Below are positions 2,621 through 35,977 of a stretch of 37,030 nt of DNA, piece after piece. The stretch comes from a virus (taxonomy: Duplodnaviria; Heunggongvirae; Uroviricota; Caudoviricetes), in IMG/VR virus record IMGVR_UViG_2861069343_000007, positions 1 through 37,030 of that record. One strand, 5' to 3'. The position numbers were made by a program, and so were the translations under genes. The first letter of the stretch is position 1. Every line of letters begins with the position of its first letter. Below the pieces are notes generated by a model. The model did not search any database and was not told where the DNA came from. It saw only the letters and a program-made list of their open reading frames with translations.

Positions 2621-2732
2621 AACTGAAGTTGCCCTGAAAATGAAATTTTTTTGCACAACCGCAGAACTTTTCCGCAGGGCATCAGTCTTAATTAGTGCCA
2701 CTGCTTTTCTTTGATGTCCCCATTTTGTGGAG

Positions 2733-2776
2733 CCCATCAACCCCGCCATTTCGGTTCAAGGTTGATGGGTTTTTTG
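2733..2776 (+). terminator. Rho-independent terminator-like hairpin downstream of ybjL
   Basis: 10-bp stem cccatcaacc / ggttgatggg (2733..2742, 2760..2769) followed by tttttt (2770..2775). Confidence 0.5.
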
Positions 2777-2855
2777 TTGCCTGAAATTTAAGCTATTTAA
2801 AATCATGATGTTAGAAACACTGTTTTTTAACGATGGCGACAAAATGGCGGCAGCG

Positions 2856-3074
2856 TCAAAGAGAGAGCGCCACCTGTCCTGATTTCATTGGATGCGGCTG
2901 AACCGGATTTGACTCTTTTGGCGTTGCAATCGAACGAACAAAAGTTTCATGGGTAACAAAAGTATGGCTGCAGTTAATGTTCTGGCACTGGTTGTAACGC
3001 TCTTTGGTCAATGAAGATACCTGAAAACTGCTGCGAGTATGGGCGGCACTTCCACACAGTGGGCAAATCATCAT
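2856..3074 (-). CDS. ogr: Ogr/Delta-family zinc-finger late-gene activator (P2 Ogr / 186 B)
   Basis: CPLCGSAAH...CQNINCSHTF zinc-finger pattern typical of Ogr; start likely at the internal MM (3074 or 3071) rather than ORF-track 3107. Confidence 0.85.
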   Translation of the reverse strand: MMICPLCGSAAHTRSSFQVSSLTKERYNQCQNINCSHTFVTHETFVRSIATPKESNPVQPHPMKSGQVALSL

Positions 3075-3164
3075 TTTTCGAGCTCTCCCCATTTTTGCTA
3101 AATTCACAATAATGATACCGCATTATTCTATTTTTCAAACTTAAAAGTTCTCCATTGCGAAGAA

Positions 3165-4265
3165 TCATTCCATTTCGAAATCATCAATCCTCACTTCAAG
3201 CTCCAGACTGGTCGTAAAACCGTTATCCGGGCTGACGGTATGCGTCAGAGTCGTAATGGTCCATTCCGCATCATCTATCGGCTGTTTAAAGCCACTGACT
3301 TTCACTGGCATTTCCGTGTAGAGATCTGCCCGCCCTTCCGCCAGTTGTAGCGAGAATGACGCAACGCCGCGTTGCAGGCGTTCCCACTGCATTTTCGCTG
3401 CCCGTTCGGCGTTACTCCGATTAGCATAGGTGCGATTAAGTACCAGCACGTTTTCATCCGTACCCACCAGGTAATCGCCCTGCTTCGCTTCCGGCTCTTT
3501 CTTCTGCTTCTTAGTCCTGCGCTTACGCTTCACCGTGGTGCTTTCTTTCTTCGCGGGTTCGCGGGTATGCAACCAGCTGGCAATTATGCCCGTATAGGCT
3601 CCGCGATCTGCCAGGGTAAAGCGGTGACTGTCGCCGTCCTTACGTGTGATAGTGATCACCGGCAGTGGTTTACCGCTGGCACTTTTGCCCTGTCCCTGCC
3701 GGATGAATAACAGATTGCCATTTTTCACCGACGCAATAGCACCGTACTGGCGCGCCAGCCGCATCAGAAAACTACCGTCACTCTCATTAGTCTGGTCTAT
3801 ATGCTCCACGAGCTTATCCGACAGGTCTTTACCCAGTACCATCTTCAGCTTGTGCCGCGCGGCTATCTCCTTCACCACTTCCCCAATGGTGGTCTTGTGC
3901 CACGATTTTTCACGGCGGGTATTCAGCGTTTCCCGAAAATCAGCACTTCGCGCCCGGATAGTCAGGCGGTCCGGTGCGCCAGTGTGTTCAATCTCGTCCA
4001 CTGTGAATGCCCCTTTCGGGAAAAGCGGCTGCCCCTTCCAGCCCAGCGCCAGCGTAATGACCGCACCACGGCGCGGCAGCACGATTTTTCCGTCAGCGTC
4101 ATCCAACTCCAGATCAAGCTGGTCCGCTTCAAAGCCCCGGTTATCCGTCAGCGTCAAACTCATCAGGCGGTTATCCAGCACAGTGGTGATATCCCTGCCC
4201 TCAATACTGATGCTGAATGCGGGAGTTTTGTTGCCTTTGTTAAGCAGTTCTGAGCTGAAATTCAC
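3165..4265 (-). CDS. D: Tail protein gpD (late control D)
   Basis: 366 aa; position and similarity to P2 gpD; 4-nt overlap with gpU. Confidence 0.85.
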   Translation of the reverse strand: MNFSSELLNKGNKTPAFSISIEGRDITTVLDNRLMSLTLTDNRGFEADQLDLELDDADGKIVLPRRGAVITLALGWKGQPLFPKGAFTVDEIEHTGAPDRLTIRARSADFRETLNTRREKSWHKTTIGEVVKEIAARHKLKMVLGKDLSDKLVEHIDQTNESDGSFLMRLARQYGAIASVKNGNLLFIRQGQGKSASGKPLPVITITRKDGDSHRFTLADRGAYTGIIASWLHTREPAKKESTTVKRKRRTKKQKKEPEAKQGDYLVGTDENVLVLNRTYANRSNAERAAKMQWERLQRGVASFSLQLAEGRADLYTEMPVKVSGFKQPIDDAEWTITTLTHTVSPDNGFTTSLELEVRIDDFEME

Positions 4266-8304: not shown

Positions 8305-8820
8305 TCAGAGGCCGAGGGCGTTGCGGTGCGCTTCCATCAGGTCCACACCGTCCACAATTTCCACCATGTTGATAAGGTCCACTTCATAGAGCACCTCACC
8401 ATTGATGGTCAGCTTCGCGTAGCTGTTGGTACTGGTCACTTTGGTGGTGTTGCTTTCGCCCGTCTTCCACTCACCGGAATCCACTTCTTTGTGACGTCCA
8501 CGCACCACAAGCTCCACGGCCTGCACTTCCCCGGTATCGTCACGCTGGATAGAGCCGGTAAAGCGCAACTGGATGCCATCCACCGTGGATTTGCCCATCT
8601 GCTTAAACAGCAGCAGTTCGGTACCACCAATGGAAAATTCTGTGTCCAGCGCACTATCATCCAGCCCCAGATCCACATCCACTGCACCCGGCATTCCGCC
8701 ACCGCGATACTTCTCATATTTGCGGGTGAATTTCGGCAGCGTCAGCGACTCAACGATCCCCTGCCAGTTGTTCCCGTCGTTAAACAGGTTCAGGTGTTTT
8801 AATTTGCGTGGTAAAGCCAT
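8305..8820 (-). CDS. FII: Tail tube protein gpFII
   Basis: 171 aa; P2 FII-like; follows the sheath gene. Confidence 0.85.
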   Translation of the reverse strand: MALPRKLKHLNLFNDGNNWQGIVESLTLPKFTRKYEKYRGGGMPGAVDVDLGLDDSALDTEFSIGGTELLLFKQMGKSTVDGIQLRFTGSIQRDDTGEVQAVELVVRGRHKEVDSGEWKTGESNTTKVTSTNSYAKLTINGEVLYEVDLINMVEIVDGVDLMEAHRNALGL

Positions 8821-8829
8821 GTTGTCCCC

Positions 8830-10002
8830 TTACGCGCTGACCTGGCTGGAGAAATTCACCAGGTACTGATCGGTGATGCGCTGACGCAGCATCAGGTTTT
8901 CAAGTGGCGGCACTGGTGTGTAGTCGTAGTCGATGGTGAGTTTTCCAGCTTTCAGAGTGTCTTTATCGTTCACCGACTCATCCAGCCAGCAATCGCCACC
9001 AATGAGATAGCCCTGACTGATCAGGCTGCGCATTTTGGCGCGGATACCTTCGATAATGTCGCGGGCCAGCGACGGATTCAGCGGTTTGTCGACCGCCCAC
9101 ATTGGCGCTTCTGCCATCGTGTCCATCAGCACCTGCGCCGTGCGGGTGTAGTTTTCGAAGGCAAAGAGTGGGTCATCACTCAGGCAGCGGGAACCCCAGA
9201 AGCGGAAACCGTCTTTGCGGATAAGCGTGGTAACGTCGTTCTGGTTAAGCAGACCTGCATCGGTTGCCGGGTCCTGCAGATCCCAGAACACATCTGCAGA
9301 AATTCCGGTGACACCGTTCACGCCCACGTTGGACAGGCTTTTGTGCCACCCGGTTTGCTCATCAATTTTGGCACGCAGACCAAGCGCACGGGCGGTGGCA
9401 TATGCCGTTGCGTCGGCATTCAGCACCGTGTCCCAGCCAGTAAAGTCGGGCCAGATCAGCATCCCTTCACGCTGGCTGAAGTTTTTACGGTAAGTGATTG
9501 CTTCCTGCACCGTCTTGCAACCATACGCTGACAGGTAAGCAAACCCACGCAGGCTTTGCGCCACGCCCAGCAACTCAGTAGCAACGGCTTTGTTATCGTG
9601 CCCCGGCACGCCGAGAATGCGCGGTTTAACACCGAGCTGTGACTGGGCAGATAACAGGGCTTTCATACCAGTTTTTTTACCTTCAGCAGTCACTGCGCCG
9701 ATGATATTGGTCGTGGTTTCTTCTTCCGTTTCACCCTGCGGCACACGCACAACAACGGTCACGGGTTTTGCCTGGTCAGCGATGGCATCCAGCGAACGGG
9801 CCAGCGTACCTGACTCACCCGCTTTACCGCTGGCAGTAAGCACATCAGTGATCAGCACGGGTTTATTAAGAGGGAACATTTTTGCATCGGCATCATCGCC
9901 CGTGCAGACCATGCCCACGATGGCGGTGCTCACCGTAGTAATGGATCGAGTGCCTTCGTTGACTTCAACAACGCGCACTCCGTGGTGGTAATCCTGAGCC
10001 AT
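8830..10002 (-). CDS. FI: Contractile tail sheath protein gpFI
   Basis: 390 aa; P2 FI-like. Confidence 0.9.
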
Positions 10003-10078
10003 AGTGGCGAACCTCCTGATTGGATTAGGCTTCGCCCTATGTTGAAGTGATTGTGTCTGACAAGCAGCTAAGCGCAGT

Positions 10079-10096
10079 TGTACCGTTATTCACACA
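10079..10096 (-). promoter_or_regulatory. Ogr-type late promoter activator site (TGT-N12-ACA) upstream of FI
   Basis: tgtaccgttattcacaca, in the G/FI intergenic region about 80 bp upstream of the FI start. Confidence 0.55.
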
Positions 10097-10108
10097 AAAT
10101 GACGGTAT

Positions 10109-10522
10109 TTATCTGCTTGCAGGGAAAACAGGCCAAATGATATCAGGTGCGGTGCTGGTATCTGTTGCCGTCACAGCCTCGATATAATCCAGCACAACGT
10201 TAAGTCGGGTAGTTTCTTCTTGCGTCAGTTTGCGCCCGGCCTGCAGCTTTAACTGAATCACGCTGATATTGGCCATTGCTGCGTCTATCAGCGACTGTTT
10301 TTTCTGTTCAGCGTCAGCTACCAGTTCATTATGAGAACGTTCCGGAGGGAGCGGCGCAGTAAATACCCCGTCTGAATACCCCCAGCCAATTCCGGGATGC
10401 TCACTGATATCAGAAATATCAATGAGCTGCTGATTATCCGGCACTGTGAATTCAGCCTCGCCATCCCAGACAATGACATTCACAACCATCCCATTTTCAA
10501 TAACTGCATATGACGCATTCAT
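10109..10522 (-). CDS. G: Tail fiber assembly protein (gpG/Tfa family)
   Basis: Directly downstream of H; start at MNASYAVIENG where its ATG overlaps the H stop (TAATG). Confidence 0.8.
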   Translation of the reverse strand: MNASYAVIENGMVVNVIVWDGEAEFTVPDNQQLIDISDISEHPGIGWGYSDGVFTAPLPPERSHNELVADAEQKKQSLIDAAMANISVIQLKLQAGRKLTQEETTRLNVVLDYIEAVTATDTSTAPDIIWPVFPASR

Positions 10523-12837
10523 TATGCAAACTCCTCGATAATACAAATCCCTGCAGCGCCTTTCCCGCCCGTCATACTGGTTCCGCTATAACCGGCATCG
10601 TATGCACCACCTCCGCCTGAACCATATGCCTTACCACTAACACCACCGCCAGCGCCTGCGCGTCCACCGCCGCCCCAGTGCGATGTTCCGCCTTCACCGC
10701 TGACGCTGATATTTCCGGACTGACCGTCGCCTCCATCTCCACCAGTGATGCGGATATCGCCAGTACTCGGCACACCTCCGTTACCGCCGTTTGTGTTTGT
10801 AACACCCACTTTCCCGCCGCCTGCGCCACCAGGAGCAATTAACGATGCGAATACGCTATTCCCGCCCCTGGTGCCGTTCGTCGCACTAACACCACCGGCC
10901 CCACCTGCGCCGATAGTGACTGGATAACTATTCTGTGTCGGGGTCATTATTGAAATTATTGTTCCACCGGCCCCACCGCCAGCACCGAAAAACGTTTCAT
11001 TATTGGATGTAGCCTTGCAGCCGCCCCCTCCGCCACCGCCGCCCGTTATTGTGACCCTGAGCCGTTTTGTTCCTGGCGTCGGGATGTACGTACCTGATGA
11101 CGTGAAAACCCTAGTGCTTATCAGGCGCCCAACGTATCCACTTTCATCGCTCAAGCCAAGGTCAGTAGTAGTAGGTTTATTTTTAGTGTTATACGCTCTG
11201 CGCCATCCAGGTGAATAACTTGTGCTGCCAGACACGTTAAACACATAGATAAACTCCGCATTAGTGAGTGCACCAGAGACACTTGTCGTCGTGGCTGTTG
11301 TTATTCGAATAGTGTAATTGTCGGTATTATTGCTGAATACTTCTATCACAGCACCCGTCAGTGGAATAATGCCACAACCAGTTTCACTGTCTGGTATGGA
11401 TGCACTAGTTGCATACGACCATGCACAACGAGCGAACCATGCTTTCGTATTGAATGCCCCATTATTTTGCAACAAAGTAACTAACTGAGCTGTCGTTATT
11501 GACTCACCGTTATTACCTGTTTTTAACCAACCAGTAGGAGATGCCGGGCAACCAATATACTGAATAACCTCCTGTGTGCTTGTTTTAGCCAGAATATCCC
11601 GTCCAACATTAGTCAGTGTTGTCAAGCTGGCTGTATCATTCCCCGTAAAATACGGTAGTTTGTCTGCCGCAGTGGCAAGGCCTGCCAGTGCGGTCAGTGT
11701 GGCGTCGGCAGGTTGTTTTCCATTGGCAAGGTCATATACAGCCTTCACGGCTTTTGGTGTGGCAGCCTGCGTTTCTGACGTGCTGTTAGTGGCGCTGCTG
11801 AGTTGCACGGTGCCTTTTACCGTCAGTGAAGCTGCAGGCACATCCGTTATCTGGCTCCACGGGTGCGTGTGACTGACAGGTGCCTTACCTGCTGCAAGGT
11901 CATATGCCGCCTTCACTGCCTTTGGTGTGGCAGCCTGCGTTTCTGACGTGCTGTTAGTGGCACTGCTGAGTTGCACGGTGCCTTTTACCGTCAGTGAAGC
12001 TACAGGCACATCCGTTATCTGATTCCACGGGTGTGTGTGACTGACAGGTGCCTTACCTGCTGCAAGGTCATATGCCGCCTTCACTGCCTTTGGAGTGGCG
12101 GCCTGCGTTTCTGATGTGCTGTTAGTGGCGCTGCTGAGTTGCACAGTGCCTTTTACCGTCAGCGAGGCTGCAGGTACACCTGTTATCTGATTCCACGGGT
12201 GTGTGTGACTGGCGGATGCTTTACCTGCTGCAAGATCATATGCAGCCTTCACAGCCTTCGGTGTTGCGGCCAGTATTTCGGATTCACTGTTGGTCGCACT
12301 GCTTAACTGAGTAAAACCTTTTGCGGTCAGCGAGGCGTCCGGGTGACGTCGTGACTGTTCGTGCTCTGATATTTTGTCATCCACATACTTGCGAGTTGCC
12401 AGTACTACAGCAGGGTCGATTTTCAGGGTGATATTGTCCGTACTGCTGGTAATCAGCACCATGCGCACGGTCTGGGTGCGCCCGCTGCCTTCAGCCAGTT
12501 GCGGTTTATAGCTTTCCGGGCAGTTCCCCACGGCAATCAATGCCCCTGACTCATCAAACAGGCCCACTTCACGTATCCACCAACCGCCCTCGTTTTCAGG
12601 GATCACCTGTTCAGCAATAATCTGGCTGCTGTTCTGCGGGTCGATATAGAGCATATTCAGTGCAGCCCGGCGTTTCTCATTTACCAGTGCAGTCTGCTTT
12701 GCGTCCGGCGTCGGCAATGCTCCGCCGCCATCGCCCACCGCCATATGGGTAATTTTTAGCGGCACACCAAGCGCGGCGGCGCTGGCAAGTTTCGCCGCGC
12801 CAATATCCGTCAGCAGGGTATAAAATTTTGTGCTCAT
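10522..12837 (-). CDS. H: Tail fiber protein gpH with four tandem fiber repeats and glycine-rich C-terminal domain
   Basis: 771 aa; P2 H-like N-terminus; four ~57-aa repeats (SLTVKGTVQLSSATNSTSETQAATPKAVKAAYDLAAGKAPVSHTHPW); C-terminal ~200 aa rich in GGxGG. Confidence 0.9.
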   Translation of the reverse strand: MSTKFYTLLTDIGAAKLASAAALGVPLKITHMAVGDGGGALPTPDAKQTALVNEKRRAALNMLYIDPQNSSQIIAEQVIPENEGGWWIREVGLFDESGALIAVGNCPESYKPQLAEGSGRTQTVRMVLITSSTDNITLKIDPAVVLATRKYVDDKISEHEQSRRHPDASLTAKGFTQLSSATNSESEILAATPKAVKAAYDLAAGKASASHTHPWNQITGVPAASLTVKGTVQLSSATNSTSETQAATPKAVKAAYDLAAGKAPVSHTHPWNQITDVPVASLTVKGTVQLSSATNSTSETQAATPKAVKAAYDLAAGKAPVSHTHPWSQITDVPAASLTVKGTVQLSSATNSTSETQAATPKAVKAVYDLANGKQPADATLTALAGLATAADKLPYFTGNDTASLTTLTNVGRDILAKTSTQEVIQYIGCPASPTGWLKTGNNGESITTAQLVTLLQNNGAFNTKAWFARCAWSYATSASIPDSETGCGIIPLTGAVIEVFSNNTDNYTIRITTATTTSVSGALTNAEFIYVFNVSGSTSYSPGWRRAYNTKNKPTTTDLGLSDESGYVGRLISTRVFTSSGTYIPTPGTKRLRVTITGGGGGGGGCKATSNNETFFGAGGGAGGTIISIMTPTQNSYPVTIGAGGAGGVSATNGTRGGNSVFASLIAPGGAGGGKVGVTNTNGGNGGVPSTGDIRITGGDGGDGQSGNISVSGEGGTSHWGGGGRAGAGGGVSGKAYGSGGGGAYDAGYSGTSMTGGKGAAGICIIEEFA
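11700..12350 (-). repeat. About four tandem ~171-bp coding repeats inside the tail fiber gene
   Basis: Near-identical DNA units beginning gcaaggtcatat... recur at ~11726, ~11897, ~12068 and (diverged) ~12232. Confidence 0.8.
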
Positions 12838-13439
12838 GGATTCACTCTCATTGTGTCAATAACATGGACCGCCCCGCCTTCATGCGCGGTGCCGCCGGAA
12901 ATAATTGTTTCGTTGATATACGGATAGATCGTGATTTCTTCGCCAAGATAGCTGGCGGCTCCCACCCAATGCGGGCCGCTGGTCTGCAGGTTGATGGACA
13001 TGCCGCTCATGTGACGGCTACATGGTTTGGCATCGCTTATCAGTCGCTCAAGTTCCAGATAGGTATCTTCAGTGATGCCCTGGTCCTGCACGCCGATATC
13101 CAGACGAAACGTGCCCGGTGCCTCTCCGGTCTGCCACCACTCAATAATGCGGATCAGAAAGCCGAACGGCTCCACCACCCGCCGCACGGCACTGGTGGTC
13201 CCTTTATGCTGATGAATATAAAAAGCATCCTTCACCACCTGGCGCTTGACGCTTTCTGTCCAGCCCTCGTCCCAGCGATCCACAGAGAACGCCCAGGCGA
13301 GATAAGGCAGGAAACTGACCGGACAGGTAGCCGGATTCCACAAGTCACGCAGCGGCACCTGCAAATCAGAAATCCCGCTACAGGTTTGCGCCAGTCGGCG
13401 CTCCAGTGAAGTTGAACCCGGTGGCAGCAGACTATTCAT
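12834..13439 (-). CDS. I: Baseplate assembly protein gpI
   Basis: 201 aa; position between J and H; overlapping stop/start. Confidence 0.8.
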   Translation of the reverse strand: MNSLLPPGSTSLERRLAQTCSGISDLQVPLRDLWNPATCPVSFLPYLAWAFSVDRWDEGWTESVKRQVVKDAFYIHQHKGTTSAVRRVVEPFGFLIRIIEWWQTGEAPGTFRLDIGVQDQGITEDTYLELERLISDAKPCSRHMSGMSINLQTSGPHWVGAASYLGEEITIYPYINETIISGGTAHEGGAVHVIDTMRVNP

Positions 13440-14340
13440 CCGTTCCTCCGTTGGTTACGCTCCACTGCGTACATGATGCCGCCTGTGTTTTGTTCAGGAC
13501 CACATCCGCCAGCGGAGAAGCCAGTTCCACACGTTGAACACCCTCAACATGCAGAGCAGCAAAGATGGCGCTACGGCGAATATCCCGACCAAGCCTCGTC
13601 TGGCTGGCAATGTACTTCTGCAGACTGGCTTTTGCCGCTGCCATTACCGGCTCTGCTTCCGGTCCCGGATAGAGAAAAATGGTGGCTTCCACGCGATACG
13701 GAATGATTTCTGCGCTGCGAACCGTAAGACGGTCAGCCACCGGGCGGACGTTCTCACTGTTCAGGGCTTTCTCCACCACATCCAGCAAGTCTTTTTCTGC
13801 TGTTCCGTCGCCTTCACGACTCAGGACAGTCAGTACCACCTCTGCAGGTGCCGGACTGGTTGCACTGGCATCCGCCACCCGACCGTCGGCGCTTCGGGCA
13901 TGAAATTCATAAGCGGCAGTTGGCCCCGCAACAGAAAGCCCTTCAAAGGCTGCGGGCACACGCAGGCGTAACGCTTCATCGCTTTCCATCACAGCCGCAA
14001 CGGGTGGCACAGCGTCATTATCAGCAGGCGTCACCGTCAGGCGTTTCACGTTGTAGTTGGCAGCGAGCTGGTCAAGATCGCCGCCCATCGCGTAAGCCAC
14101 CATCACAGCCTGCGCGGCTTCGTTAATGCGCTGGCGCAGAAGCAACTCACGGTAAGCGTTCTCCTGCAGCAATTTGGTGACGGGTTCAGATTCCAGTTCC
14201 AGCGTGCGGATCACGGCTTCCTGCTCATCTTTCGGATGAAGCGCAACAAATTCGGCCTTGCGTTCGGCAAGCAGCGTCTCAAAGTCCGGCACATCGACAA
14301 TCTGCGGCGCAGGCAACTGCGAAAGGTCAATCACTGCCAT
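13432..14340 (-). CDS. J: Baseplate protein gpJ
   Basis: Start placed at MAVIDLSQLPAP (aligns with the P2 J N-terminus), not ORF-track 14379. Confidence 0.85.
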   Translation of the reverse strand: MAVIDLSQLPAPQIVDVPDFETLLAERKAEFVALHPKDEQEAVIRTLELESEPVTKLLQENAYRELLLRQRINEAAQAVMVAYAMGGDLDQLAANYNVKRLTVTPADNDAVPPVAAVMESDEALRLRVPAAFEGLSVAGPTAAYEFHARSADGRVADASATSPAPAEVVLTVLSREGDGTAEKDLLDVVEKALNSENVRPVADRLTVRSAEIIPYRVEATIFLYPGPEAEPVMAAAKASLQKYIASQTRLGRDIRRSAIFAALHVEGVQRVELASPLADVVLNKTQAASCTQWSVTNGGTDE

Positions 14341-14686
14341 TCTCTGCTCCTGTTGATACGGAAAGGGAAACAGGCACACCGTTATTACGCCGCCCGGTCA
14401 GCCCCACCACCATTGAACCGTCAAAATTGCTTTTAATGGTGATGGAATCCAGCGTCAGCCGTGGCTCCCAGCGACTCAGCGCCACATACACTGCCGACAT
14501 GACCTGCAGGCGTAATGCCGGATTTTGTGGCTGGTCTATCAGTGTCGACAGCAGGGAACCATATTCACGACGGGCAATGCGGCTACCCTGCGGTGTCAGT
14601 AGAATGTCCCGCACCGACTGACGCAGATGGTCAATATCAGTAATGGCTTTACCGCTGGTATTGTTCATCCCGATATAAAGCGTCAT
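14327..14686 (-). CDS. W: Baseplate wedge protein gpW
   Basis: 119 aa; position between V and J. Confidence 0.8.
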   Translation of the reverse strand: MTLYIGMNNTSGKAITDIDHLRQSVRDILLTPQGSRIARREYGSLLSTLIDQPQNPALRLQVMSAVYVALSRWEPRLTLDSITIKSNFDGSMVVGLTGRRNNGVPVSLSVSTGAENGSD

Positions 14687-15261
14687 ACCGGACCTCCGGT
14701 TGTATCGCCGCCTTTCAGGACGCCAGTATGCTGATGCGCATCAACCACGATCCCGTTAGAACTCATCGCTCCGCCGCCCTGGGTAACGCCACCATTGATC
14801 ACCACTTCGCTGTTAATGCGCGTGCGGTCAGCCTCCAGTACAAACTCACTGGTTTTCATGGTGATGTTGTCAGCGGCCTCAATGACCATTGATTTGATGC
14901 CCCTGACATACCAGCGCCCGGTGGCGGGTTCGTATTCAAACCAGCCGCCGTCCGGGTATTCCGTCACGTTGCCGTCCTCAGAGCCTGAAGGTGGCGGAAA
15001 CTGGTTTGAGTAGACCGCAGGCAGGGCAAACGAGGTTTCCAGATTGCCGCCAAGGCTGAACAGCACAACCTGCTCACCCACAGACGGTTTCCACCAGGTG
15101 CGCGATTTGCCCGCGCGCAGTGTCAGCCAGTTAATCCAGTTGGTTTCGAGGTCGCCAGTTTTCACCCGACACAGCCAGTTTGCCCTGTCCACTTCGGTGA
15201 CTACACCTGTGCGGATCAGGTTGGTGATAAGGCGCATGATTTCGGTTAATTGTGCGTTCAT
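14683..15261 (-). CDS. V: Baseplate hub/spike protein gpV
   Basis: 192 aa; P2 V-like (…RAGKSRTWWKPSVGEQV…). Confidence 0.85.
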   Translation of the reverse strand: MNAQLTEIMRLITNLIRTGVVTEVDRANWLCRVKTGDLETNWINWLTLRAGKSRTWWKPSVGEQVVLFSLGGNLETSFALPAVYSNQFPPPSGSEDGNVTEYPDGGWFEYEPATGRWYVRGIKSMVIEAADNITMKTSEFVLEADRTRINSEVVINGGVTQGGGAMSSNGIVVDAHQHTGVLKGGDTTGGPV

Positions 15262-15307
15262 AGGGAAAGGTTGCCATCAGGGGAAGAAAGGCGGCAGTGC
15301 TGCAACT

Positions 15308-15325
15308 TGTATCAGTGCTGATACA
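15308..15325 (-). promoter_or_regulatory. Ogr-type late promoter activator site (TGT-N12-ACA) upstream of V
   Basis: tgtatcagtgctgataca in the S/V intergenic region. Confidence 0.5.
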
Positions 15326-15329
15326 AAGA

Positions 15330-15776
15330 TCACCCCGCCAGCCATTGCAGAATCATGTCGCGGGTCATTGCCTCAACATCATCATTTACACCCAGAAGGC
15401 GGCGTTCTGCGTAACGGACCTCAGGTCCTTTGCTACTGACGCGATCGCGCAAGCCGTAATGGTGAACACGGGCAATGCGCTGCACCTTACCTTCAAACTG
15501 CACGCTGGCAGAGTCGGCGCTGGCGGCAGTTTTCAGGTATTTTGTGGTGCGAAGTTTTGTAAACATCTGCCGTTTGATGCGGCCTTTTTTACTGCGTGCT
15601 GTTACCCGTCGCGGTTCATAGCTGCTGCCGTCAGGGTTGCGCTGCATCTTGATGTTCTGCTGCTGTGTCCGGCGCAGTTCCTGCGCCAGCTGGCGCATCA
15701 TGCGGCTTCTGGCGGCTGGCTCCAGATTCGCCAGCAAGGCACTCAGCCAGTCGTCCACTTTCTGCAGTTCAGCCAC
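15330..15776 (-). CDS. S: Tail completion protein gpS
   Basis: 148 aa; position. Confidence 0.8.
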   Translation of the reverse strand: MAELQKVDDWLSALLANLEPAARSRMMRQLAQELRRTQQQNIKMQRNPDGSSYEPRRVTARSKKGRIKRQMFTKLRTTKYLKTAASADSASVQFEGKVQRIARVHHYGLRDRVSSKGPEVRYAERRLLGVNDDVEAMTRDMILQWLAG

Positions 15777-16221
15777 GTTTCACCGTCCACATTTCTTCAG
15801 GTTCATCAGGTTCCGCTACAGCTTCAACACTCGACACACTGCCGTCAGTGCTGACCAGCACACGCTCCGTCAGTTGCAGGTTCAGGCTGATATCACAGAC
15901 ATCGTTGCGCAGAATATCCACCTCAAAGGTGAATAGTTTTTCCCGTAACGCCGGGTTATTGATGGCATCGGGCTGGTTATCCCTCAGCCACAGCAAAACC
16001 GGGGCCATCAGCAGATTCTGGTCGCCGCTGAAATCCTCAATCACCGCGTTCAGGGTGTAACGGTACTCCCACGACATGGAGCTGGCCCCCGTGGCAACCA
16101 GCGAACCGTTATCCACAAACAGATGCAGTTTGTCCGGGTTATTGCGGACATAAGGCACCGCTTTATTGAGGGCGTGGCGCAGGGATTGTGGTTTGTTCAC
16201 TGTTTCGCTCCTGACACGCAA
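15769..16221 (-). CDS. R: Tail completion protein gpR
   Basis: 150 aa; position. Confidence 0.8.
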   Translation of the reverse strand: MRVRSETVNKPQSLRHALNKAVPYVRNNPDKLHLFVDNGSLVATGASSMSWEYRYTLNAVIEDFSGDQNLLMAPVLLWLRDNQPDAINNPALREKLFTFEVDILRNDVCDISLNLQLTERVLVSTDGSVSSVEAVAEPDEPEEMWTVKRG

Positions 16222-16453
16222 TAATCATGTCCACTTTGTCTGCACAGACCGCCCAGGCAGTCTCCGTTTCATCCAGCAACGCGTTCAGATCACCATTAGT
16301 GCGCGGCGTTGCCTGATCCAGCCGACACGGCGTCACTCGCGGACAACCACTGACGGTAAGCCGTACCTCCGGTGAGTGCCGGACGTTCCCGCAGCCGGAT
16401 AATGTCAGCAGGCAAAGGAGTATCAGCCCAGCGGCGTAAATCCTCGTTCTCAC
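16163..16453 (-). CDS. lysC: LysC (Rz1-like outer-membrane lipoprotein spanin), embedded out of frame in lysB
   Basis: Signal peptide with lipobox LLTLSGC; overlaps the 3' end of lysB in another frame. Confidence 0.7.
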   Translation of the reverse strand: MRTRIYAAGLILLCLLTLSGCGNVRHSPEVRLTVSGCPRVTPCRLDQATPRTNGDLNALLDETETAWAVCADKVDMIIACQERNSEQTTIPAPRPQ

Positions 16454-17099: not shown

Positions 17100-17612
17100 T
17101 CAGTTTGCTCCCTGTAAGCACCAGGCCATCTCCCGCGCACGGCGGTTATCCAGCCCCTGATTAAACACACCTTTTACATAAACCCAGCGCGGCAACTGTC
17201 GGCATGCATCCTCCCAGCGCCGCTGATTAAGTAATTTCACCAGTGTGGAACTGCAGGCACTGCCCGTTCCCACGTTGAAGGCAAACGACACCGTAGCGTC
17301 ATATACCTTCTGCGGCGGCTGTTGCTTCACACACCTTTCCAGCGCCCGCTCCACACGTAGCACGTTGGAGATCAGCCCTTCCGCTGCCTGTCGTTCCGTA
17401 ATGGTTTTGCCCGGGATGACGCCCGATGTATTACCAATGCCGTCGGTCCAGACACCCGCACTGCACTGATACGGCTGCAGACGACAGCCTTCGTAATCAG
17501 CAATCAGTTTCAGCCCCTCCACGGAGGTGTGAAGCTGCTGAAAACCCGGCAGCGTGGCAGCAATAGCCAGCACGGTCCCGACAAGGCAGCGTTTAACGAT
17601 TGATGGATTCAT
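17100..17612 (-). CDS. K: SAR endolysin (phage lysozyme, gpK position)
   Basis: 170 aa; N-terminal weakly hydrophobic signal-anchor-release segment then lysozyme-like body. Confidence 0.8.
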   Translation of the reverse strand: MNPSIVKRCLVGTVLAIAATLPGFQQLHTSVEGLKLIADYEGCRLQPYQCSAGVWTDGIGNTSGVIPGKTITERQAAEGLISNVLRVERALERCVKQQPPQKVYDATVSFAFNVGTGSACSSTLVKLLNQRRWEDACRQLPRWVYVKGVFNQGLDNRRAREMAWCLQGAN

Positions 17613-17808
17613 AGTCCTCCCGCGAGATCTGCCCGTCGCGCAGAAGCTGGTAGGCTTTGTGTTTGTAGTACCAGTTGATAGCCAGCATCAGCACACCAAT
17701 CATCAGGCCGCCCAGCGTTGAGGCATCCTTGATGGACAAATCGCCCAGCCAGGCCAGCACAACGGCGATGCAGTACGTGATAAAGGCGCTGATTCGCTCA
17801 AGCGTCAT
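17593..17808 (-). CDS. Y: Holin (pinholin-like, two TM segments)
   Basis: 71 aa; two hydrophobic helices and charged C-terminus; immediately upstream of the endolysin. Confidence 0.75.
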   Translation of the reverse strand: MTLERISAFITYCIAVVLAWLGDLSIKDASTLGGLMIGVLMLAINWYYKHKAYQLLRDGQISREDYESINR

Positions 17809-17811
17809 AAT

Positions 17812-18015
17812 TCAGTCCCATAGCTGGACGGTCTGCACGGTGGTGGTGGTCGGAATGTCCGGCAACTCCACCTGCAGCCCGTGAGGTAAAAAGGGGCCGT
17901 ATTCGGCAAGCCCCGGATTTGCCTTCAGTACCTGCTCCGTGACACCCTGCGTGCGCCCGTAATGACGCCAGCAAAGCGCGTCCACCGTGTCATACTGATG
18001 CGCACGCACTTTCAT
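17812..18015 (-). CDS. X: Tail protein gpX
   Basis: 67 aa; P2 X-like (…YGRTQGVTEQVLKANPGLAE…). Confidence 0.85.
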   Translation of the reverse strand: MKVRAHQYDTVDALCWRHYGRTQGVTEQVLKANPGLAEYGPFLPHGLQVELPDIPTTTTVQTVQLWD

Positions 18016-18362
18016 CAGATAAGCTCCACTGTGCAGTGCGGCGCATCCTGCACCCGGCTGATGGCCCAGCGGGCGTCACGCCACAAATCACCGCTTGCTT
18101 CCGCCAGTTCCTCGCCCCGCTTCACACCGGACGCCGTGGCGTCATAGTCCTGGTAACGTTCGTTGAGCATGGCGCGTGCCCAGCAGTAAACCGCGTTGAA
18201 ATAGTGCTGAATGCGCTCACTTTTGCCGTCCAGCTGTTCCGCCGGAACCTCTGCCAGCGACGCATACCCCAGCATCTGCTGGCGTCTGCGAAACTCATAC
18301 AGCTCTGCGTTGACCTCCGAAATTGCCGACAGCGCAACCTGCTTTAAACGCGGCTGCGTCAC
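18015..18362 (-). pseudogene. L: Head completion protein gpL, N-terminally truncated (C-terminal ~2/3 only)
   Basis: 115 aa aligning with the C-terminal part of P2 gpL (…NAELYEF…DLWRDARWAISRVQ…); GTG start abuts the stop of the N fragment. Confidence 0.65.
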
Positions 18363-18715
18363 AGGTCCAGCTTCGCGTAGGTCAGCACCGTGTCAAAGTT
18401 GGTCTGCTCGCATTTATATTCCACATCGACCATCAGCGTCGGATCGACAGGTTCACGCTCTTTCGCGGTGGTGTCAGTGGTTCCGGCAATGGTGCTGCCA
18501 ACTCCCAGCCCCAGCAGCTGACCGGACTGCTCAGTCACTGGCGTGACGTTAATCAGCGTCAGGAAAGCGGCGGACTGCTGGATCTGGTCTTCCAGCGTCT
18601 GCTGCACAGACGGCTCCACGGTGAACTTGCTGGACAGTTCTTCAACTGCCACACCGTTCAGACGCGCCAGCTGCTGCAGGTAAGCGTTAAAAGCAAAGCG
18701 GGTATTCTTCTTCAT
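18359..18715 (-). pseudogene. N: Major capsid protein gpN, N-terminal fragment (118 aa of an expected ~350 aa)
   Basis: MKKNTRFAFNAYLQQLARLNG…FTVEPSV… matches the P2 gpN N-terminus; stop at the position where gpN normally continues. Confidence 0.65.
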
Positions 18716-18731: not shown

Positions 18732-19565
18732 TCAGCAATTGGTCAGAGTGTCAGCGGGGGCGTTACCGCCTGTTGCACGCTGGCGGTAGTCCTGGCGACT
18801 GTCTTCATGACTCAGCTTGTCCACCAGTTCGTTAAAGGCGGTTTGCTGTGCCTGCAGGGCAGTCTCCAGCTCAGACAGGCGTTCTTCCTGCTCAGACAGG
18901 GATTTTTCGGTGCGTGCGCTCAGGTTCTGCTGCTCAGTGGCGACCAGCTCCACGGCCTTATGCACATCAGAGAACCGGGCGTCATCGGACTGCTCTTTTT
19001 TGGTAAACAGCGCCGTGACGCGGGCAAACAGGGACGGTTTGTCGTCCTGGATTTCTTCCAGTTCGATCACCGTTTCCTCTGCAGCGGTAAAGAGATTGGC
19101 AGGATTCTGCTTGCGGTTTGCCAGCGGGTTATGGGCTGCACTGGCGCTGAATGTCAGCATTTCCGTACCCAGACTGGCAGGGTCATCAGTGGCAGCCAGG
19201 CCGACCAGATAGGCTTTGCCCGTATCAGCGAACTTCGGGCTGACTTCCATAGAGGTGAATAATTTCTGGCCTTTTTTCACCAGTTCCACCAGGGACTCCG
19301 TTGGCTCAACGTCGGCATACAGCGCCATCTTGCCTGCCAGCGGACCTTCCGTGATTTCTTCAGCAAACAGCGCCGTCACCTTGCCGTAGCGGTTAAAGGT
19401 GCTGTCCGGCAGATAAGACTTGATGTGCTCAAGGTTAATCAGCGCGGTATACACCGCCGGGTTGTAGCTGGCTGCCATCTGTTCCAGCCATTCACGCTGG
19501 ATTTCGCGTCCGTCGGTGGTGGCACCTTCCACCCCGATGCGAAAACGCTTTGCTTTCACTGTCAT
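18732..19565 (-). CDS. O: Capsid scaffolding protein gpO
   Basis: 277 aa; P2 gpO-like (…FRIGVEGATTDGREI…LVGLAATDDPASLGTE…). Confidence 0.85.
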   Translation of the reverse strand: MTVKAKRFRIGVEGATTDGREIQREWLEQMAASYNPAVYTALINLEHIKSYLPDSTFNRYGKVTALFAEEITEGPLAGKMALYADVEPTESLVELVKKGQKLFTSMEVSPKFADTGKAYLVGLAATDDPASLGTEMLTFSASAAHNPLANRKQNPANLFTAAEETVIELEEIQDDKPSLFARVTALFTKKEQSDDARFSDVHKAVELVATEQQNLSARTEKSLSEQEERLSELETALQAQQTAFNELVDKLSHEDSRQDYRQRATGGNAPADTLTNC

Positions 19566-19643
19566 GAGCCGTGCTCCGTTAGAAATAACTTACTGGAGCC
19601 TTATGGTTGCGGTGATGGGGGCAGTGAAACAATGCGCGGTATT

Positions 19644-19661
19644 TGTACCGACAACCACACA
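19644..19661. promoter_or_regulatory. Ogr-type activator site (TGT-N12-ACA) in the divergent O/P late promoter region
   Basis: tgtaccgacaaccacaca; near-identical half-sites to the FI site (TGTACCG…CACACA). Confidence 0.55.
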
Positions 19662-19707
19662 AACCGCAGGCGGGGAAAGCCTTCATTCAAGGCTGTAGGT
19701 TTGTGCC

Positions 19708-21474
19708 ATGAACACCACACTGACACCCGCAGATCTCGATCCCCGTCGGCAGGCCATGCTGCTGTACTTTCAGGGATACCGCGTAGCCCGCATTGCTGAA
19801 ATGCTGGGCGAGAAAGTTGCAACCGTTCACAGCTGGAAAAAACGCGACAAGTGGGGTGACTATGGGCCGCTGGATCAGATGCAGCTCACCACCGCCGCCC
19901 GCTACTGCCAGCTCATTATGAAGGAGCACAAAGAAGGGAAAGATTTCAAAGAAATTGACCTGCTGGCGCGCCAGTCGGAGCGCCACGCGCGGATCGGCAA
20001 GTTTAACAATGGCGGCAACGAAGCCGACTTAAACCCTAACGTCGCCAACCGCAACAAAGGGCCGCGCCGTCAGCCGGAAAAGAATGTTTTCACCGATGAA
20101 CAGATTGAGAAGCTGGAAGAAATCTTCCATTCCTCCATGTTCAACTACCAGCGCCACTGGTGGGAAGCAGGAAAAACCAACCGCATCCGTAATCTGCTGA
20201 AGTCACGCCAGATCGGCGCGACCTTTTACTTTGCCCGTGAAGCCCTGATTGACGCCCTGCTTACCGGACGTAACCAGATTTTCCTTTCTGCCAGTAAGGC
20301 ACAGGCTCACGTCTTTAAGCAGTACATCATCGACTTCGCCAAAGAAGTCGAGGTGGAGCTGAAAGGCGATCCGATGGTGCTTCCTAACGGGGCCACACTT
20401 TACTTCCTCGGCACCAATGCCCGCACGGCTCAGAGTTACCACGGCAACCTGTATCTGGATGAATATTTCTGGATACCGAAATTCCAGGAGCTGCGCAAAG
20501 TGGCTTCCGGTATGGCTATTCACAAAAAATGGCGACAAACCTATTTTTCTACGCCATCCAGCCTGACACACAGTGCTTATCCGTTCTGGTCCGGTGCGCT
20601 GTTCAACCGTGGGCGCAACAAAGCCGACAAGGTGGACATCGACCTGTCCCACAGCAATCTGGCCCCCGGCCTGCTGTGCGCAGACGGGCAATACCGCCAG
20701 ATAGTCACCGTGGAAGATGCAGTGCGCGGCGGCTGTAACCTGTTCGACCTTGACCAGTTGCGCATGGAGTACAGCCCGGACGAATACCAGAACCTGCTGA
20801 TGTGCGAGTTTGTGGACGATCTCGCGTCCGTGTTCCCGCTCAGCGAGCTGCAGGCGTGCATGGTGGACAGCTGGGAAGTCTGGACCGACTTTCATGCACT
20901 GGCGCTGCGCCCATTTGGCTGGCGCGAAGTGTGGATCGGTTATGACCCGGCAAAAGGTACGCAGAACGGCGACAGTGCCGGATGCGTGGTGCTGGCACCG
21001 CCAGCCGTGCCGGGCGGTAAGTTTCGCATTCTTGAGCGTCACCAGTGGCGCGGGATGGACTTTCGCGCCCAGGCTGACGCCATCAAAAAACTGACCGAAC
21101 AGTACAACGTGACCTATATCGGCATCGACTCAACCGGCGTTGGTCACGGGGTTTACGAGAACGTGAAAGCGTTTTTTCCTGCCGTCCGGGAGTTTGTCTA
21201 CAACCCCAACGTTAAAAACGCCCTGGTACTCAAGGCTTACGACATTATCAGCCACCGCCGTCTTGAGTTTGACGCCGGACACACCGACATTGCGCAGTCA
21301 TTTATGGCAATCCGTCGCGCCACCACCGCCAGCGGCAACCGCCCGACCTATGAAGCCAGCCGCAGCGAAGAAGCCAGCCACGCCGATCTGGCGTGGGCAA
21401 CCATGCACGCACTGTTTAACGAACCGCTGCAGGGCGAGTCCGCCAATACCAGCAATATTGTGGAGATTTTTTGA
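19708..21474 (+). CDS. P: Terminase large (ATPase) subunit gpP
   Basis: 588 aa; P2 gpP-like; divergent from O. Confidence 0.9.
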   Translation: MNTTLTPADLDPRRQAMLLYFQGYRVARIAEMLGEKVATVHSWKKRDKWGDYGPLDQMQLTTAARYCQLIMKEHKEGKDFKEIDLLARQSERHARIGKFNNGGNEADLNPNVANRNKGPRRQPEKNVFTDEQIEKLEEIFHSSMFNYQRHWWEAGKTNRIRNLLKSRQIGATFYFAREALIDALLTGRNQIFLSASKAQAHVFKQYIIDFAKEVEVELKGDPMVLPNGATLYFLGTNARTAQSYHGNLYLDEYFWIPKFQELRKVASGMAIHKKWRQTYFSTPSSLTHSAYPFWSGALFNRGRNKADKVDIDLSHSNLAPGLLCADGQYRQIVTVEDAVRGGCNLFDLDQLRMEYSPDEYQNLLMCEFVDDLASVFPLSELQACMVDSWEVWTDFHALALRPFGWREVWIGYDPAKGTQNGDSAGCVVLAPPAVPGGKFRILERHQWRGMDFRAQADAIKKLTEQYNVTYIGIDSTGVGHGVYENVKAFFPAVREFVYNPNVKNALVLKAYDIISHRRLEFDAGHTDIAQSFMAIRRATTASGNRPTYEASRSEEASHADLAWATMHALFNEPLQGESANTSNIVEIF

Positions 21475-22499: not shown

Positions 22500-22535
22500 T
22501 TTTAAAACGAAGACCATTAGGTCTTCGCTTTATTT
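22500..22535. terminator. Bidirectional terminator between convergent Q and retron RT
   Basis: 8-bp stem cgaagacc / ggtcttcg (loop atta), flanked by ttttaaaa upstream and ctttattt downstream; RT stop codon lies in the loop. Confidence 0.55.
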
Positions 22536-23479
22536 AAAGGGTTCTTTCCATATTTTTTTTCTAATTTGCTAATATAAGCTATTAATCTTCTATGGCTTTT
22601 TGAATCCACACTTAAAATAAATGACAACCATCCCCTAACGTGTTCTATCTCAGAAGATTTACCGCAAAATATATGATGTATCTTTGCTCTAATTTCTTTA
22701 TATTTTTCTCTACCTATCCCAACTTTCTCTTGTGAAATAACTAAACCTGTAACTTTCCTCTGACTACGAGGCCCACTAATACAAGTTTTTTTTGAGTTAA
22801 TAACCAATCCTTCACTTGGGATTATAGAAAATAAAAAATCACGTGCTTTAACAACCTTTTTCATAGACTGTGCAGATAAGGTGAGATCATCGGCATATCT
22901 CGTATATATCAAGCCCCGACTACCTGCATAGCCCTGAATACGATAATCAAGTTTTGAACATATTAGATTAGCTAATTTAGGTGATGATGGAGCACCTTGT
23001 GGTAGCAGATTTTTATAACAACATATTTTTGTCAAAACTGAAGATATTAGTCGATTATAACCAAGAGAATGGAACACTCCAAAAACTTTGTTAGCAGTTA
23101 AACTTGGGAAAAAATCCTCCAAATCAATATTCAGTATAAAGTTTGCCCCAATATGCGGGGTAGCATTATTCAAAATAGATTGGTGCTTTTCAAATCCAAT
23201 AGAAAAAGGAGATGACGACAGTTTATCTAAAATGTTACGTAGAACCCATCCTTGTAAGGCTTTAAGTTCTCGAGAAGGTTGGTAAATGGTTCTCATTCTC
23301 TTCTCTGGGCCTTTCTTTTCTACAGTGTAGATCCTATAGCGAAAATCAGCTGTATAGATTAACAACCGAAGTGTTTCAACAGATATGCGAGTCGCCTTAG
23401 ACATGTCATGCAAATTGTTCATGACAGGTAGGCCGAGATTTCTCAATCTAAAAGTGTTCAAATATTCAGCGGATTTCAT
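22517..23479 (-). CDS. ret: Retron reverse transcriptase (Retron-Eco1 / Ec86 RT)
   Basis: 320 aa; RT motifs including YADD (YTRYADDLTL); start codon 7 nt downstream of the a2 repeat of msr-msd. Confidence 0.93.
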   Translation of the reverse strand: MKSAEYLNTFRLRNLGLPVMNNLHDMSKATRISVETLRLLIYTADFRYRIYTVEKKGPEKRMRTIYQPSRELKALQGWVLRNILDKLSSSPFSIGFEKHQSILNNATPHIGANFILNIDLEDFFPSLTANKVFGVFHSLGYNRLISSVLTKICCYKNLLPQGAPSSPKLANLICSKLDYRIQGYAGSRGLIYTRYADDLTLSAQSMKKVVKARDFLFSIIPSEGLVINSKKTCISGPRSQRKVTGLVISQEKVGIGREKYKEIRAKIHHIFCGKSSEIEHVRGWLSFILSVDSKSHRRLIAYISKLEKKYGKNPLNKAKT

Positions 23480-23485
23480 GAAAGT

Positions 23486-23654
23486 TGCGCACCCTTACGT
23501 CAGAAAAAACGGGTTTCCTGGTTGGCTCGGAGAGCATCAGGCGATGCTCTCCGTTCCAACAAGGAAAACAGACAGTAACTCAGATTCAATGCAGGATGCC
23601 GAAACAACATCCAGAGGTTGACCTTAATGATAAACCTCTCGCTAAGGGTGCGCA
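23486..23654 (-). ncRNA. msr-msd: Retron msr-msd non-coding RNA (Ec86 msDNA template)
   Basis: Plus strand 23499..23585 reads gtcagaaaaaacgggtttcctggttggctcggagagcatcaggcgatgctctccgttccaacaaggaaaacagacagtaactcaga, recognised as Ec86 msd; flanking inverted repeats a1/a2 TGCGCACCCTTA at 23643..23654 and 23486..23497. Confidence 0.9.
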
Positions 23655-24565
23655 TACGGAATCTTATCATAGTTAAATGTTGATTTTCTACGGTTTTCAA
23701 AATTCATAATCTCAAGCCGCAATCGGTCAAGTGTCTTTCTATCAAAGACGCTCCTAACATAGCTAGCCCCCAAAGCAGTGACCTGATAACCATCAGTCAT
23801 TTGAAGTATTTTTCGTTCATTTATTAGACGAGAAACAACGGATCTAACAATAATTTTAGATAAAACATCATCTTGCTTTATCGCTTTAAAAGCTAGTTCA
23901 CACAGTGTGCGGTAGTTGACACTATCCAGTAAATAGATACAAGGCAATAGAAACCGCTCTGCGTATAATATATTTCCAATATCTTTTGATACTTTATTTT
24001 CTTTCCTAACCTGCTTAATAGATGCCATTAATTTTTTATATAATCGTAATTTTCTGGCAACATCAATAGATGAATCACACATTTCTTTTAGTTCATTTGA
24101 ACTACAACGCAAAACAGATTTTGAATTAAACTTACGCAACAGGCGAACAGGACCATAGTTAATAAAGCTACGTTTTGATTTAAATTTTGCATCTTGAATG
24201 CAAATCAACTTTCTCCTTAAGTTTTCATTATTAGAGAACGCACCAAGCTCTGTGAAAGACCCCGGACTTTCAGGAAATAAAATTATTACATCGACAGCTT
24301 CAGCCAGAATATTTTCTAAACTTAAAAGGCTATGCTGCCCTTGACCAGCCAAAAGATCATCAAATAGATCTTCTGGATAAAATATATCAACATCACTGAA
24401 CTTTGCTAAAAATTGTGATAATTGATGACGCCAAGATTGATGATTAGCAACGTCACCACCACATAGAAAAATGGTTATTTTAATATTAGCTCCTCGATAG
24501 AAGCCTTTCTTTGTGAGATGTCCTATAAGCTGTTGTTGCTGCTCATCGGTAAATTTTTTATTCAT
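23642..24565 (-). CDS. Retron-Eco1 accessory effector (nucleoside deoxyribosyltransferase-like domain protein)
   Basis: Immediately upstream of msr; start assigned to MNKKFTDEQ (ATG 24565..24563, GGAG 4 nt upstream) though in-frame ATGs exist upstream (24595, 24754); stop overlaps a1. Confidence 0.75.
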   Translation of the reverse strand: MNKKFTDEQQQQLIGHLTKKGFYRGANIKITIFLCGGDVANHQSWRHQLSQFLAKFSDVDIFYPEDLFDDLLAGQGQHSLLSLENILAEAVDVIILFPESPGSFTELGAFSNNENLRRKLICIQDAKFKSKRSFINYGPVRLLRKFNSKSVLRCSSNELKEMCDSSIDVARKLRLYKKLMASIKQVRKENKVSKDIGNILYAERFLLPCIYLLDSVNYRTLCELAFKAIKQDDVLSKIIVRSVVSRLINERKILQMTDGYQVTALGASYVRSVFDRKTLDRLRLEIMNFENRRKSTFNYDKIPYAHP

Positions 24566-24637
24566 AATCTCCCCGCTTTTTTCTACTTTATACATCAAGT
24601 TATGAATAGATCCAATCTCCATACCCCATGGCGCGCG

Positions 24638-24656
24638 CTCGTATCCCCGCCACGCC
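24638..24656. other. Candidate cos site (cohesive end)
   Basis: Minus strand reads GGCGTGGCGGGGATACGAG, resembling the P2 cohesive end GGCGAGGCGGGGAAAGCAC as recalled; inside a short GC-rich patch between two AT-rich islands. Confidence 0.4.
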
Positions 24657-24697
24657 TGCCCGCTTTGTGTAGTGGTTTTCATGCACCTGCATGACAT

Positions 24698-24722
24698 AAG
24701 TAAAAGCCCGCCAGAACTGGCG
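24698..24722 (-). terminator. Hairpin with U-tract on the minus strand in the cos-proximal region
   Basis: cccgccag..ctggcggg stem (24706..24722) followed on the minus strand by a T-run. Confidence 0.35.
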
Positions 24723-24874
24723 GGACTGAGCAAAAACGATCCTTTTGCGATCATTCATTTTCATGCGCTATAGTCATGCAACAAACGCATACGAACCATA
24801 TGGTTAGATTACTCATCAAGTCAGATGGATTTTCAGGCAGATTGCCACAGCAATTGTAAAGGAGCGAGATTGAA

Positions 24875-33640: not shown

Positions 33641-33785
33641 AAGGCAACATTCCTTCTAGATATGGCTTGTGGCGAGCCGTTGTTTGTCGTGATTAGTAGT
33701 GAAGACTCCAAAAGAAGACTTCTGGTTCAACTTTAAGATCGCTTTTGGAATCTGTCAACGAATTTTGGATTTCTTTGGAGGATTT
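33641..33785. promoter_or_regulatory. Genetic switch region with expected face-to-face pR/pL promoters
   Basis: Intergenic region between divergently placed apl and cI; arrangement inferred from phage 186, elements not mapped. Confidence 0.4.
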
Positions 33786-35898: not shown

Positions 35899-35977
35899 TA
35901 TGTATGGCTATACAAATTCATACATTGACACTGGTTATACATACAGTAAAAATGCTCTCCACTGGAGGGCATTTTTT

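Follow-up and report, generated by a model that had tools for sequence, protein, structure and literature searches.

TGT-N12-ACA dyads of a defective P2-like prophage in Escherichia coli are very likely activator sites for four Ogr-dependent late promoters

Late transcription of the P2 type needs an activator together with the C-terminal domain of the RNA polymerase alpha subunit, and is blocked by rpoA109. The delta proteins, in which the Ogr fold is tandemly duplicated, act on Psid/PLL and on helper late promoters, and in phage 186 the p32 promoter is a further B-dependent promoter. In the RefSeq record of P2, one activator region (3057-3087) is annotated for both pO and pP, with transcript starts at 3127 and 3016 that each lie ~55 bp from its centre. 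The same record places the pV site at 10239-10266 and the corresponding start at 10308, where the V coding sequence begins, and the pF site at 17555-17583, with starts at 17626-17628 (56-58 bp from the site) and the FI ATG at 17652. The record of phage 186 gives a single B-protein site (3798-3817), labelled as serving 'activation of pV and p12 promoters'. For pJ it places the site 58.5 bp away from where initiation was mapped, and before orf32 it has no B-dependent promoter annotated. According to PMC3931495, the four late promoters of P2 carry TGT-N12-ACA and depend on Ogr, and delta of P4 and phiR73 and Pag of PSP3 are members of the Ogr_Delta family associated with a TGT-N12-ACA dyad near -55. 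In phage Smp131, PP' and PO' were assigned to the same coordinates, with one dyad (PMC3931495), and the late regions of phiRSY1 were reported to contain a related dyad and no sigma-70 promoter (PMC5694545).

The window, meaning the whole stretch of DNA analysed here (37,030 nucleotides; IMG/VR virus record IMGVR_UViG_2861069343_000007), holds a P2-like (Peduoviridae) prophage in E. coli, inserted beside ybjL/rybB. The flanking host DNA comprises E. coli ybjL and the gene for the host sRNA RybB (2700-2778, plus strand; Rfam, 105 bits), which adjoins both ybjL and the ogr end of the prophage, placing the prophage at or next to rybB. The DNA shares ~96% identity with Escherichia phage 500465-1 and with several Klebsiella phages. 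On the minus strand, late genes follow in the order ogr, D, U, T, E, FII, FI, G, H, I, J, W and V, and beyond V come S, R, the lysis genes, X, remnants of L and N, and O; P and then Q lie on the plus strand, divergent from O. Among these genes are FII (8305-8820, minus strand) and, each with a Pfam match, the sheath gene FI (8830-10002, minus strand), V (14683-15261, minus strand), the scaffold gene O (18732-19565, minus strand) and the terminase gene P (19708-21474, plus strand). At the far end of the window are a gene for a 186-type CI repressor (33699-34355; Pfam Phage_CI_repr and CI_C) and the integrase gene (35900-37030), and between these two lies a gene for a KAP-family P-loop NTPase (34567-35898, plus strand; PADLOC PDC-S20, E 7e-171).

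The cargo region beside Q holds a retron-type defence pair (22517-24754, minus strand), whose first gene encodes a reverse transcriptase (PADLOC RT_II-A, E 8e-128; Pfam RVT_1) and whose second encodes an NDT_II-A effector (E 5e-94); the equivalent place in phage 4LV2017 is taken by a retron St85-family pair. Three adjacent genes on the plus strand at 24875-27625 gave full-length matches to PADLOC Hp1, Hp2 and Hp3 (E 1e-239, 3e-248 and 2e-157, respectively), and no Pfam domains were found in them. The trio looks like a candidate three-gene defence system in the same hotspot as the retron pair.

Relative to phage 500465-1, the window is missing 1569 bp (11686-13254 of that phage), the junction lying at ~18360, within 18015-18715. 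Lost with it are the whole of M (the gene for the terminase small subunit), the C-terminal two-thirds of N (the capsid gene) and the start of L; N persists as its first 118 aa and L as its last 115 aa. The head module had been described as damaged in an earlier, sequence-only reading of this DNA, and this deletion through N-M-L is that damage. A search of 5,426 complete E. coli genomes, 985 of which carry the flanking halves, did not find the junction; the deletion is therefore private and probably recent, and intact late promoters are expected with or without selection. The same reading had taken the late-gene activation circuit to be functional despite the lost head genes, which is plausible for this prophage. 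The prophage's own Ogr homologue, or the delta protein of a P4-like satellite, can probably still induce the tail and lysis operons, although heads can no longer be built.

The candidate activator gene, an ogr homologue of 72 aa (2856-3074, minus strand), matches Pfam Ogr_Delta (PF04606, E 5.2e-22) and has the cysteine arrangement C-X2-C-X22-C-X4-C, and the earlier statement that an intact Ogr/B gene is present therefore stands. Over its full length the protein is 51% identical to P2 Ogr, with the four Cys in register; it is 54% identical to 186 B and to PSP3 Pag, and Klebsiella phages 4LV2017 and ST512-KPC3phi13.2 have the very same protein (100% identity). The gene follows D directly, an arrangement shared with P2 and 186, and, again as annotated in those two phages, sigma-70-like promoter candidates are found between D and ogr (3154-3109). 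Phage 4LV2017 has an intact head module, a PV region identical to that of the window and an identical PO/PP dyad; hence, the same activator/site pairs are also found in a phage whose genome was deposited as complete.

Perfect TGT-N12-ACA dyads are present at 10079-10096 (TGTACCGTTATTCACACA), 15308-15325 (TGTATCAGTGCTGATACA) and 19644-19661 (TGTACCGACAACCACACA), located in the G-FI, S-V and O-P intergenic regions, respectively. We consider it very likely that they are sites for an Ogr-family C4 zinc-finger activator and serve four late operons, each dyad lying ~55 bp 5' of a predicted weak sigma-70 promoter. All three had been picked out from the letters alone and were recovered at the same positions, as were the TGTACCG...CACACA ends said to be common to the FI and O/P sites. 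Every one of the three extends to TTGT-N12-ACAA, a pattern with no match elsewhere in the window. A weight matrix scan had been proposed as a check on these sites. Using a symmetrised matrix built from 49 relatives' sites, from which sites with four or fewer mismatches to the window's own were left out, the dyads at 10079, 19644 and 15308 ranked 1, 2 and 3 among ~37,000 window positions, with scores of 24.8, 23.7 and 17.7 against a background of -37.7 +/- 11.1. A near-dyad in the 3' part of D (3346-3363, TTGTAGCGAGAATGACGCAA; TGT-N12-GCA, matrix score 14.0) was considered as an ogr-proximal or late-promoter site and rejected, its centre lying ~280 nt 5' of the ogr ATG (3074), which is the wrong geometry.

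The PF dyad (10079..10096, minus strand), the top match to the matrix, reads TGTGTGAATAACGGTACA on the late strand and is centred at 10087.5, 85.5 nt 5' of the FI ATG. Relatives of FI provided 55 distinct upstream sequences in six clusters, and in all of them the dyad lies at -92 to -94. Matches in the IMG/VR scans with FI and O were mostly near-identical relatives. As most FI and O relatives are close kin, their conservation weighs less than that of the V set, and given this near-identity a scan of GTDB genomes, one per species, was used for O/P diversity. On its other side, the PF dyad is separated from G by 13 nt. G and the C-terminal (3') part of H (10126-12373) gave no megablast match to phage 500465-1; the tail-fibre region of that phage holds a DNA invertase and alternative fibre genes, and the window is without an invertase.

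The PV dyad (15308..15325, minus strand) is a perfect 8+8 palindrome, TGTATCAG-NN-CTGATACA, centred at 15316.5 and thus 55.5 nt from the A of the V ATG (15261). V relatives in IMG/VR yielded 35 distinct upstream sequences, which form 15 clusters without ungapped similarity to each other; all 35 contain exactly one TGT-N12-ACA within 160 nt, and it starts at -63 to -66 of the ATG. The sequence-only reading had found this site closer to the V start than expected. The short distance is real, but it is not unexpected, as the centre of the P2 pV site also lies 55.5 nt from the V ATG. Judged by the P2 and 186 annotations and by the P2 V start, both a near V site and a single O/P site are the family norm.

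The O/P dyad (19644..19661), common to the divergent promoters PO (leftward) and PP (rightward), is centred at 19652.5, 87.5 nt from the O ATG (19565) and 55.5 nt from the P ATG (19708). Across 39 enterobacterial prophages of different species (GTDB, one genome per species), whose O proteins are 58-99% identical to that of the window, each O/P region has one conserved dyad. Its gap to the P ATG is invariably 46 nt, while its distance to the O ATG ranges over 81.5-100.5 nt. Blocks conserved across species also stand between the shared dyad and the core promoters, CGCGTTGTnTC(AC) on the PO side and GGGGAAAG on the PP side, at 19624-19636 and 19672-19681, respectively (~-47 to -35 of each promoter).

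A fourth perfect TGT-N12-ACA (TGTGCCATGAACACCACA, 19702-19719; matrix score 14.3) overlaps the P start codon, with its centre 58 bp from that of the shared dyad, and is without the flanking A of TTGT-N12-ACAA. A motif over the P ATG was also present in 11 of the 39 prophages, where it is not conserved, and in 13 of 41 O/P regions of GTDB species-representative genomes (three of them near-identical Escherichia copies). As a true second O/P site the motif was rejected, being missing from the remaining 28 regions and composed of the P start codon and codon 4; it is probably fortuitous and outside the system. The earlier statement that the O/P region has only one site is literally wrong on account of this motif, yet right for the conserved site, of which there is one, as P2 and 186 annotate.

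With six specified bases the motif is low in information, and the three dyads could be chance matches in intergenic DNA. Counts in the window agree with chance: bare TGT-N12-ACA matches 10 times, where shuffles give 9.85, and the seven matches other than the three dyads fall in coding or host DNA; the 8-base TTGT-N12-ACAA matches three times against 0.89 expected, with at least three reached in 8 of 100 shuffles. As neither count is significant, both were set aside and the evidence was taken from placement and conservation. All three dyads fall 45-105 nt 5' of the FI, V, O or P start codon, a space of ~200 nt in a window of 37 kb, whereas ~0.05 would be expected there by chance given 10 matches (Poisson estimate, P ~3e-5). 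Furthermore, the offset recurs in 15 non-homologous V contexts and in 39 species-level relatives, and the dyads head the matrix ranking. Chance is thus a highly improbable source of the dyads, effectively refuted by the comparative data. Nor do we give much credence to the proposal that they belong to a host dimeric regulator such as CRP (TGTGA-N6-TCACA). The TGTG.../...CACA half-sites do resemble those of CRP, but CRP needs TGT-N10-ACA, the spacing is N12 in the window and in every relative, and the inner bases misfit GA/TC. The dyads also co-occur with an Ogr_Delta gene and mark exactly four late operons, and P2 and 186 assign the site to Ogr/B.

For the V dyad there is a further alternative, that it serves instead, or also, as the upper stem of an intrinsic terminator ending the O-to-S operon. 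The dyad, a perfect 8-bp palindrome, follows the stop codon of S at a distance of 5 nt, and the RNA of 15262-15345 (minus strand) folds at -25.9 kcal/mol with the dyad nested in a GC-rich stem (GGCUGGCGGG.../...CUGCCGCC) followed by UUUCUU; P2 has a putative terminator after S, and the window's lineage leaves no other space for one. However, the fold does not stand out from shuffled sequences (z -1.16; 25 of 200 shuffles as stable or more), and the V dyad hairpin was not called in a terminator scan. Fourteen other lineages share the V offset, but their dyads are imperfect as palindromes and the sequence 5' of them has no relationship to the S-V junction of the window, which makes TGT/ACA spacing, rather than a hairpin, the conserved property. 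We regard a terminator role for the V dyad as unlikely, though the hairpin may be a weak O-operon terminator that overlaps PV.

The Ogr-type late-promoter reading, in contrast, is supported by position, geometry, conservation and the intact Ogr_Delta gene, and the sites are very probably ordinary Ogr/B-dependent late promoters, in an arrangement long known for P2-like phages. In this mechanism, the activator encoded at 2856-3074 would bind the three dyads, each ~55 bp 5' of a predicted weak sigma-70 promoter with a -10-like hexamer and no usable -35, and once bound it would, on the model of P2 Ogr, 186 B and P4 delta, recruit RNA polymerase via the C-terminal domain of its alpha subunit. The dyad at 10079-10096 would drive FI-FII-E-T-U-D and that at 15308-15325 would drive V-W-J-I-H-G. 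The dyad at 19644-19661, midway between back-to-back promoters, would drive O-(N-M-L)-lysis-R-S leftward and P-Q rightward. The FI and O mRNAs would be leadered and carry a Shine-Dalgarno sequence, and the V and P mRNAs would start at the A of the ATG. For annotation, the value lies in a regulatory map of a defective prophage, comprising three sites, four late promoters and one activator gene, although a P2 specialist would find little surprising in it.

A scan of 9900-10200, 15150-15450 and 19500-19800 for consensus sigma-70 promoters returned no promoter-like sites, as expected if the promoters are activator-dependent. Anchoring relatives on the dyad revealed a conserved -10-like hexamer 35-41 nt past every dyad, on each side, from which transcription is predicted to begin 55.5-58.5 nt away from the dyad centres. 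The predicted PF -10 is CAACAT (10039..10044, minus strand), and the block AACATAGG occurs 35-43 nt past the dyad in all FI-upstream clusters; transcription from PF is predicted to start near 10032, which would give a ~30-nt leader containing the Shine-Dalgarno sequence AGGAGG. For PO, the predicted -10 is AACCAT (19603..19608, minus strand), with GCAA(A/C)CATA(A/G)GGC found 34-46 nt past the dyad in 34 distinct relatives, a predicted start at ~19594-19597 and a predicted leader carrying the Shine-Dalgarno sequence GGAG. At the other two promoters the predicted -10 lies at -12 to -7 of the A of the start codon itself, as CAACCT (15268..15273, minus strand) for PV and TAGGTT (19696..19701, plus strand) for PP. 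At the PV position, xAxxxT was found in 10 of 14 hexamer types and 18 of 22 distinct sequences, and at the PP position TAnnnT was found in all 38 distinct relative sequences listed.

The messenger of P2 gene V is a classic leaderless mRNA. In the window, the positions of the PV and PP hexamers imply leaderless V and P mRNAs, starting at 15261 (minus strand) and 19708 (plus strand), and Shine-Dalgarno sequences are absent 5' of both start codons. For P, a leaderless mRNA in this clade is a reasonable prediction. Taking these features jointly, we lean towards the view that in this lineage, defined here as the relatives of Escherichia phage 500465-1, Klebsiella phage 4LV2017 and ~40 enterobacterial prophages, V and P mRNAs are both leaderless, with the A of the start codon as first base and the Ogr dyad centred 55.5 bp before it. 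Of the two messages driven by the shared O/P dyad, that of O would then have a leader and that of P none, and in the V position the dyad-to-ATG module would travel between phages with differing upstream cargo. What is mildly new, and a modest addition, is the prediction that both V and P are leaderless with their start codons fixed 55.5 bp from the dyad; a literature search on 'leaderless' together with 'P2 gene V' gave no match.

Records of related phages differ in where P begins, with the CDS at 14603-16369 in 500465-1 and at 13949-15667 in 4LV2017, the latter starting 48 nt downstream. Residues 11-16 of the window P protein (DPRRQA) align with residues 12-17 of P2 gpP, identifying the first ATG (19708) as the conserved P start, and indels of relatives just past the P ATG are in frame. 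The comparison favours this upstream ATG over the 4LV2017 start, and P should be annotated from it. In this clade, TTGT-N12-ACAA followed by an ATG 46 nt on is a useful guide to V and P starts.

The closest likeness is to P2, which has the same four late operons in the same order, one site for each tail operon and one common to O and P. Distances from the dyad centre to the FI ATG (in 186, from the pJ site to the ATG) are comparable, at 85.5 nt in the window and 82.5 nt for both P2 pF and 186 pJ. Unlike the P mRNA of P2, which has a 23-nt leader (start 3016, ATG 2993), the P mRNA of the window would have none, the P ATG occupying the expected start position. In P2 the P ATG lies 78.5 nt from the centre of the site, and the P homologue of 186 starts at the same distance and likewise has a 23-nt leader. 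P2 also has cargo genes (orf30 and fun(Z)) 5' of PV and PF, and none are found there in the window. Phage 186 resembles the window in that one site activates both divergent promoters of its O and P homologues, and in that its activator B is a C4 zinc-finger homologue. Its CI represses pB at annotated operators, and the window repressor is of the 186 CI type.

The sites themselves set the window apart from both phages. Those of P2 are imperfect, TGT-N12-CCA at pF and pO/pP and TTGT-N11-ACAA at pV, and those of 186 are TGT-N12-CCA at pJ and at the shared O/P site, whereas the window's are perfect. When the clade matrix was run on the P2 genome, the experimentally defined P2 sites ranked only 8, 11 and 120. 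The matrix fails there because P2 and 186 sites are half-degenerate, and it therefore describes the clade rather than the whole family. The window's sites fit the textbook consensus better than P2's own, and the specificity of the activator may differ, the proteins being 51-54% identical. Among other P2-like phages, the predicted late promoters of Smp131 and phiRSY1/phiRSA1 have dyads 5' of the same operons, together with an Ogr-like CX2CX22CX4C protein; operon membership is rearranged in Smp131, and the phiRSY1 motif differs, being TGTTGT-N13-ACAACA. No satellite is present in the window. Unlike the tandem delta, the window activator is the single 72-aa form, and a P4-like satellite would be expected to find the perfect dyads well suited to trans-activation.
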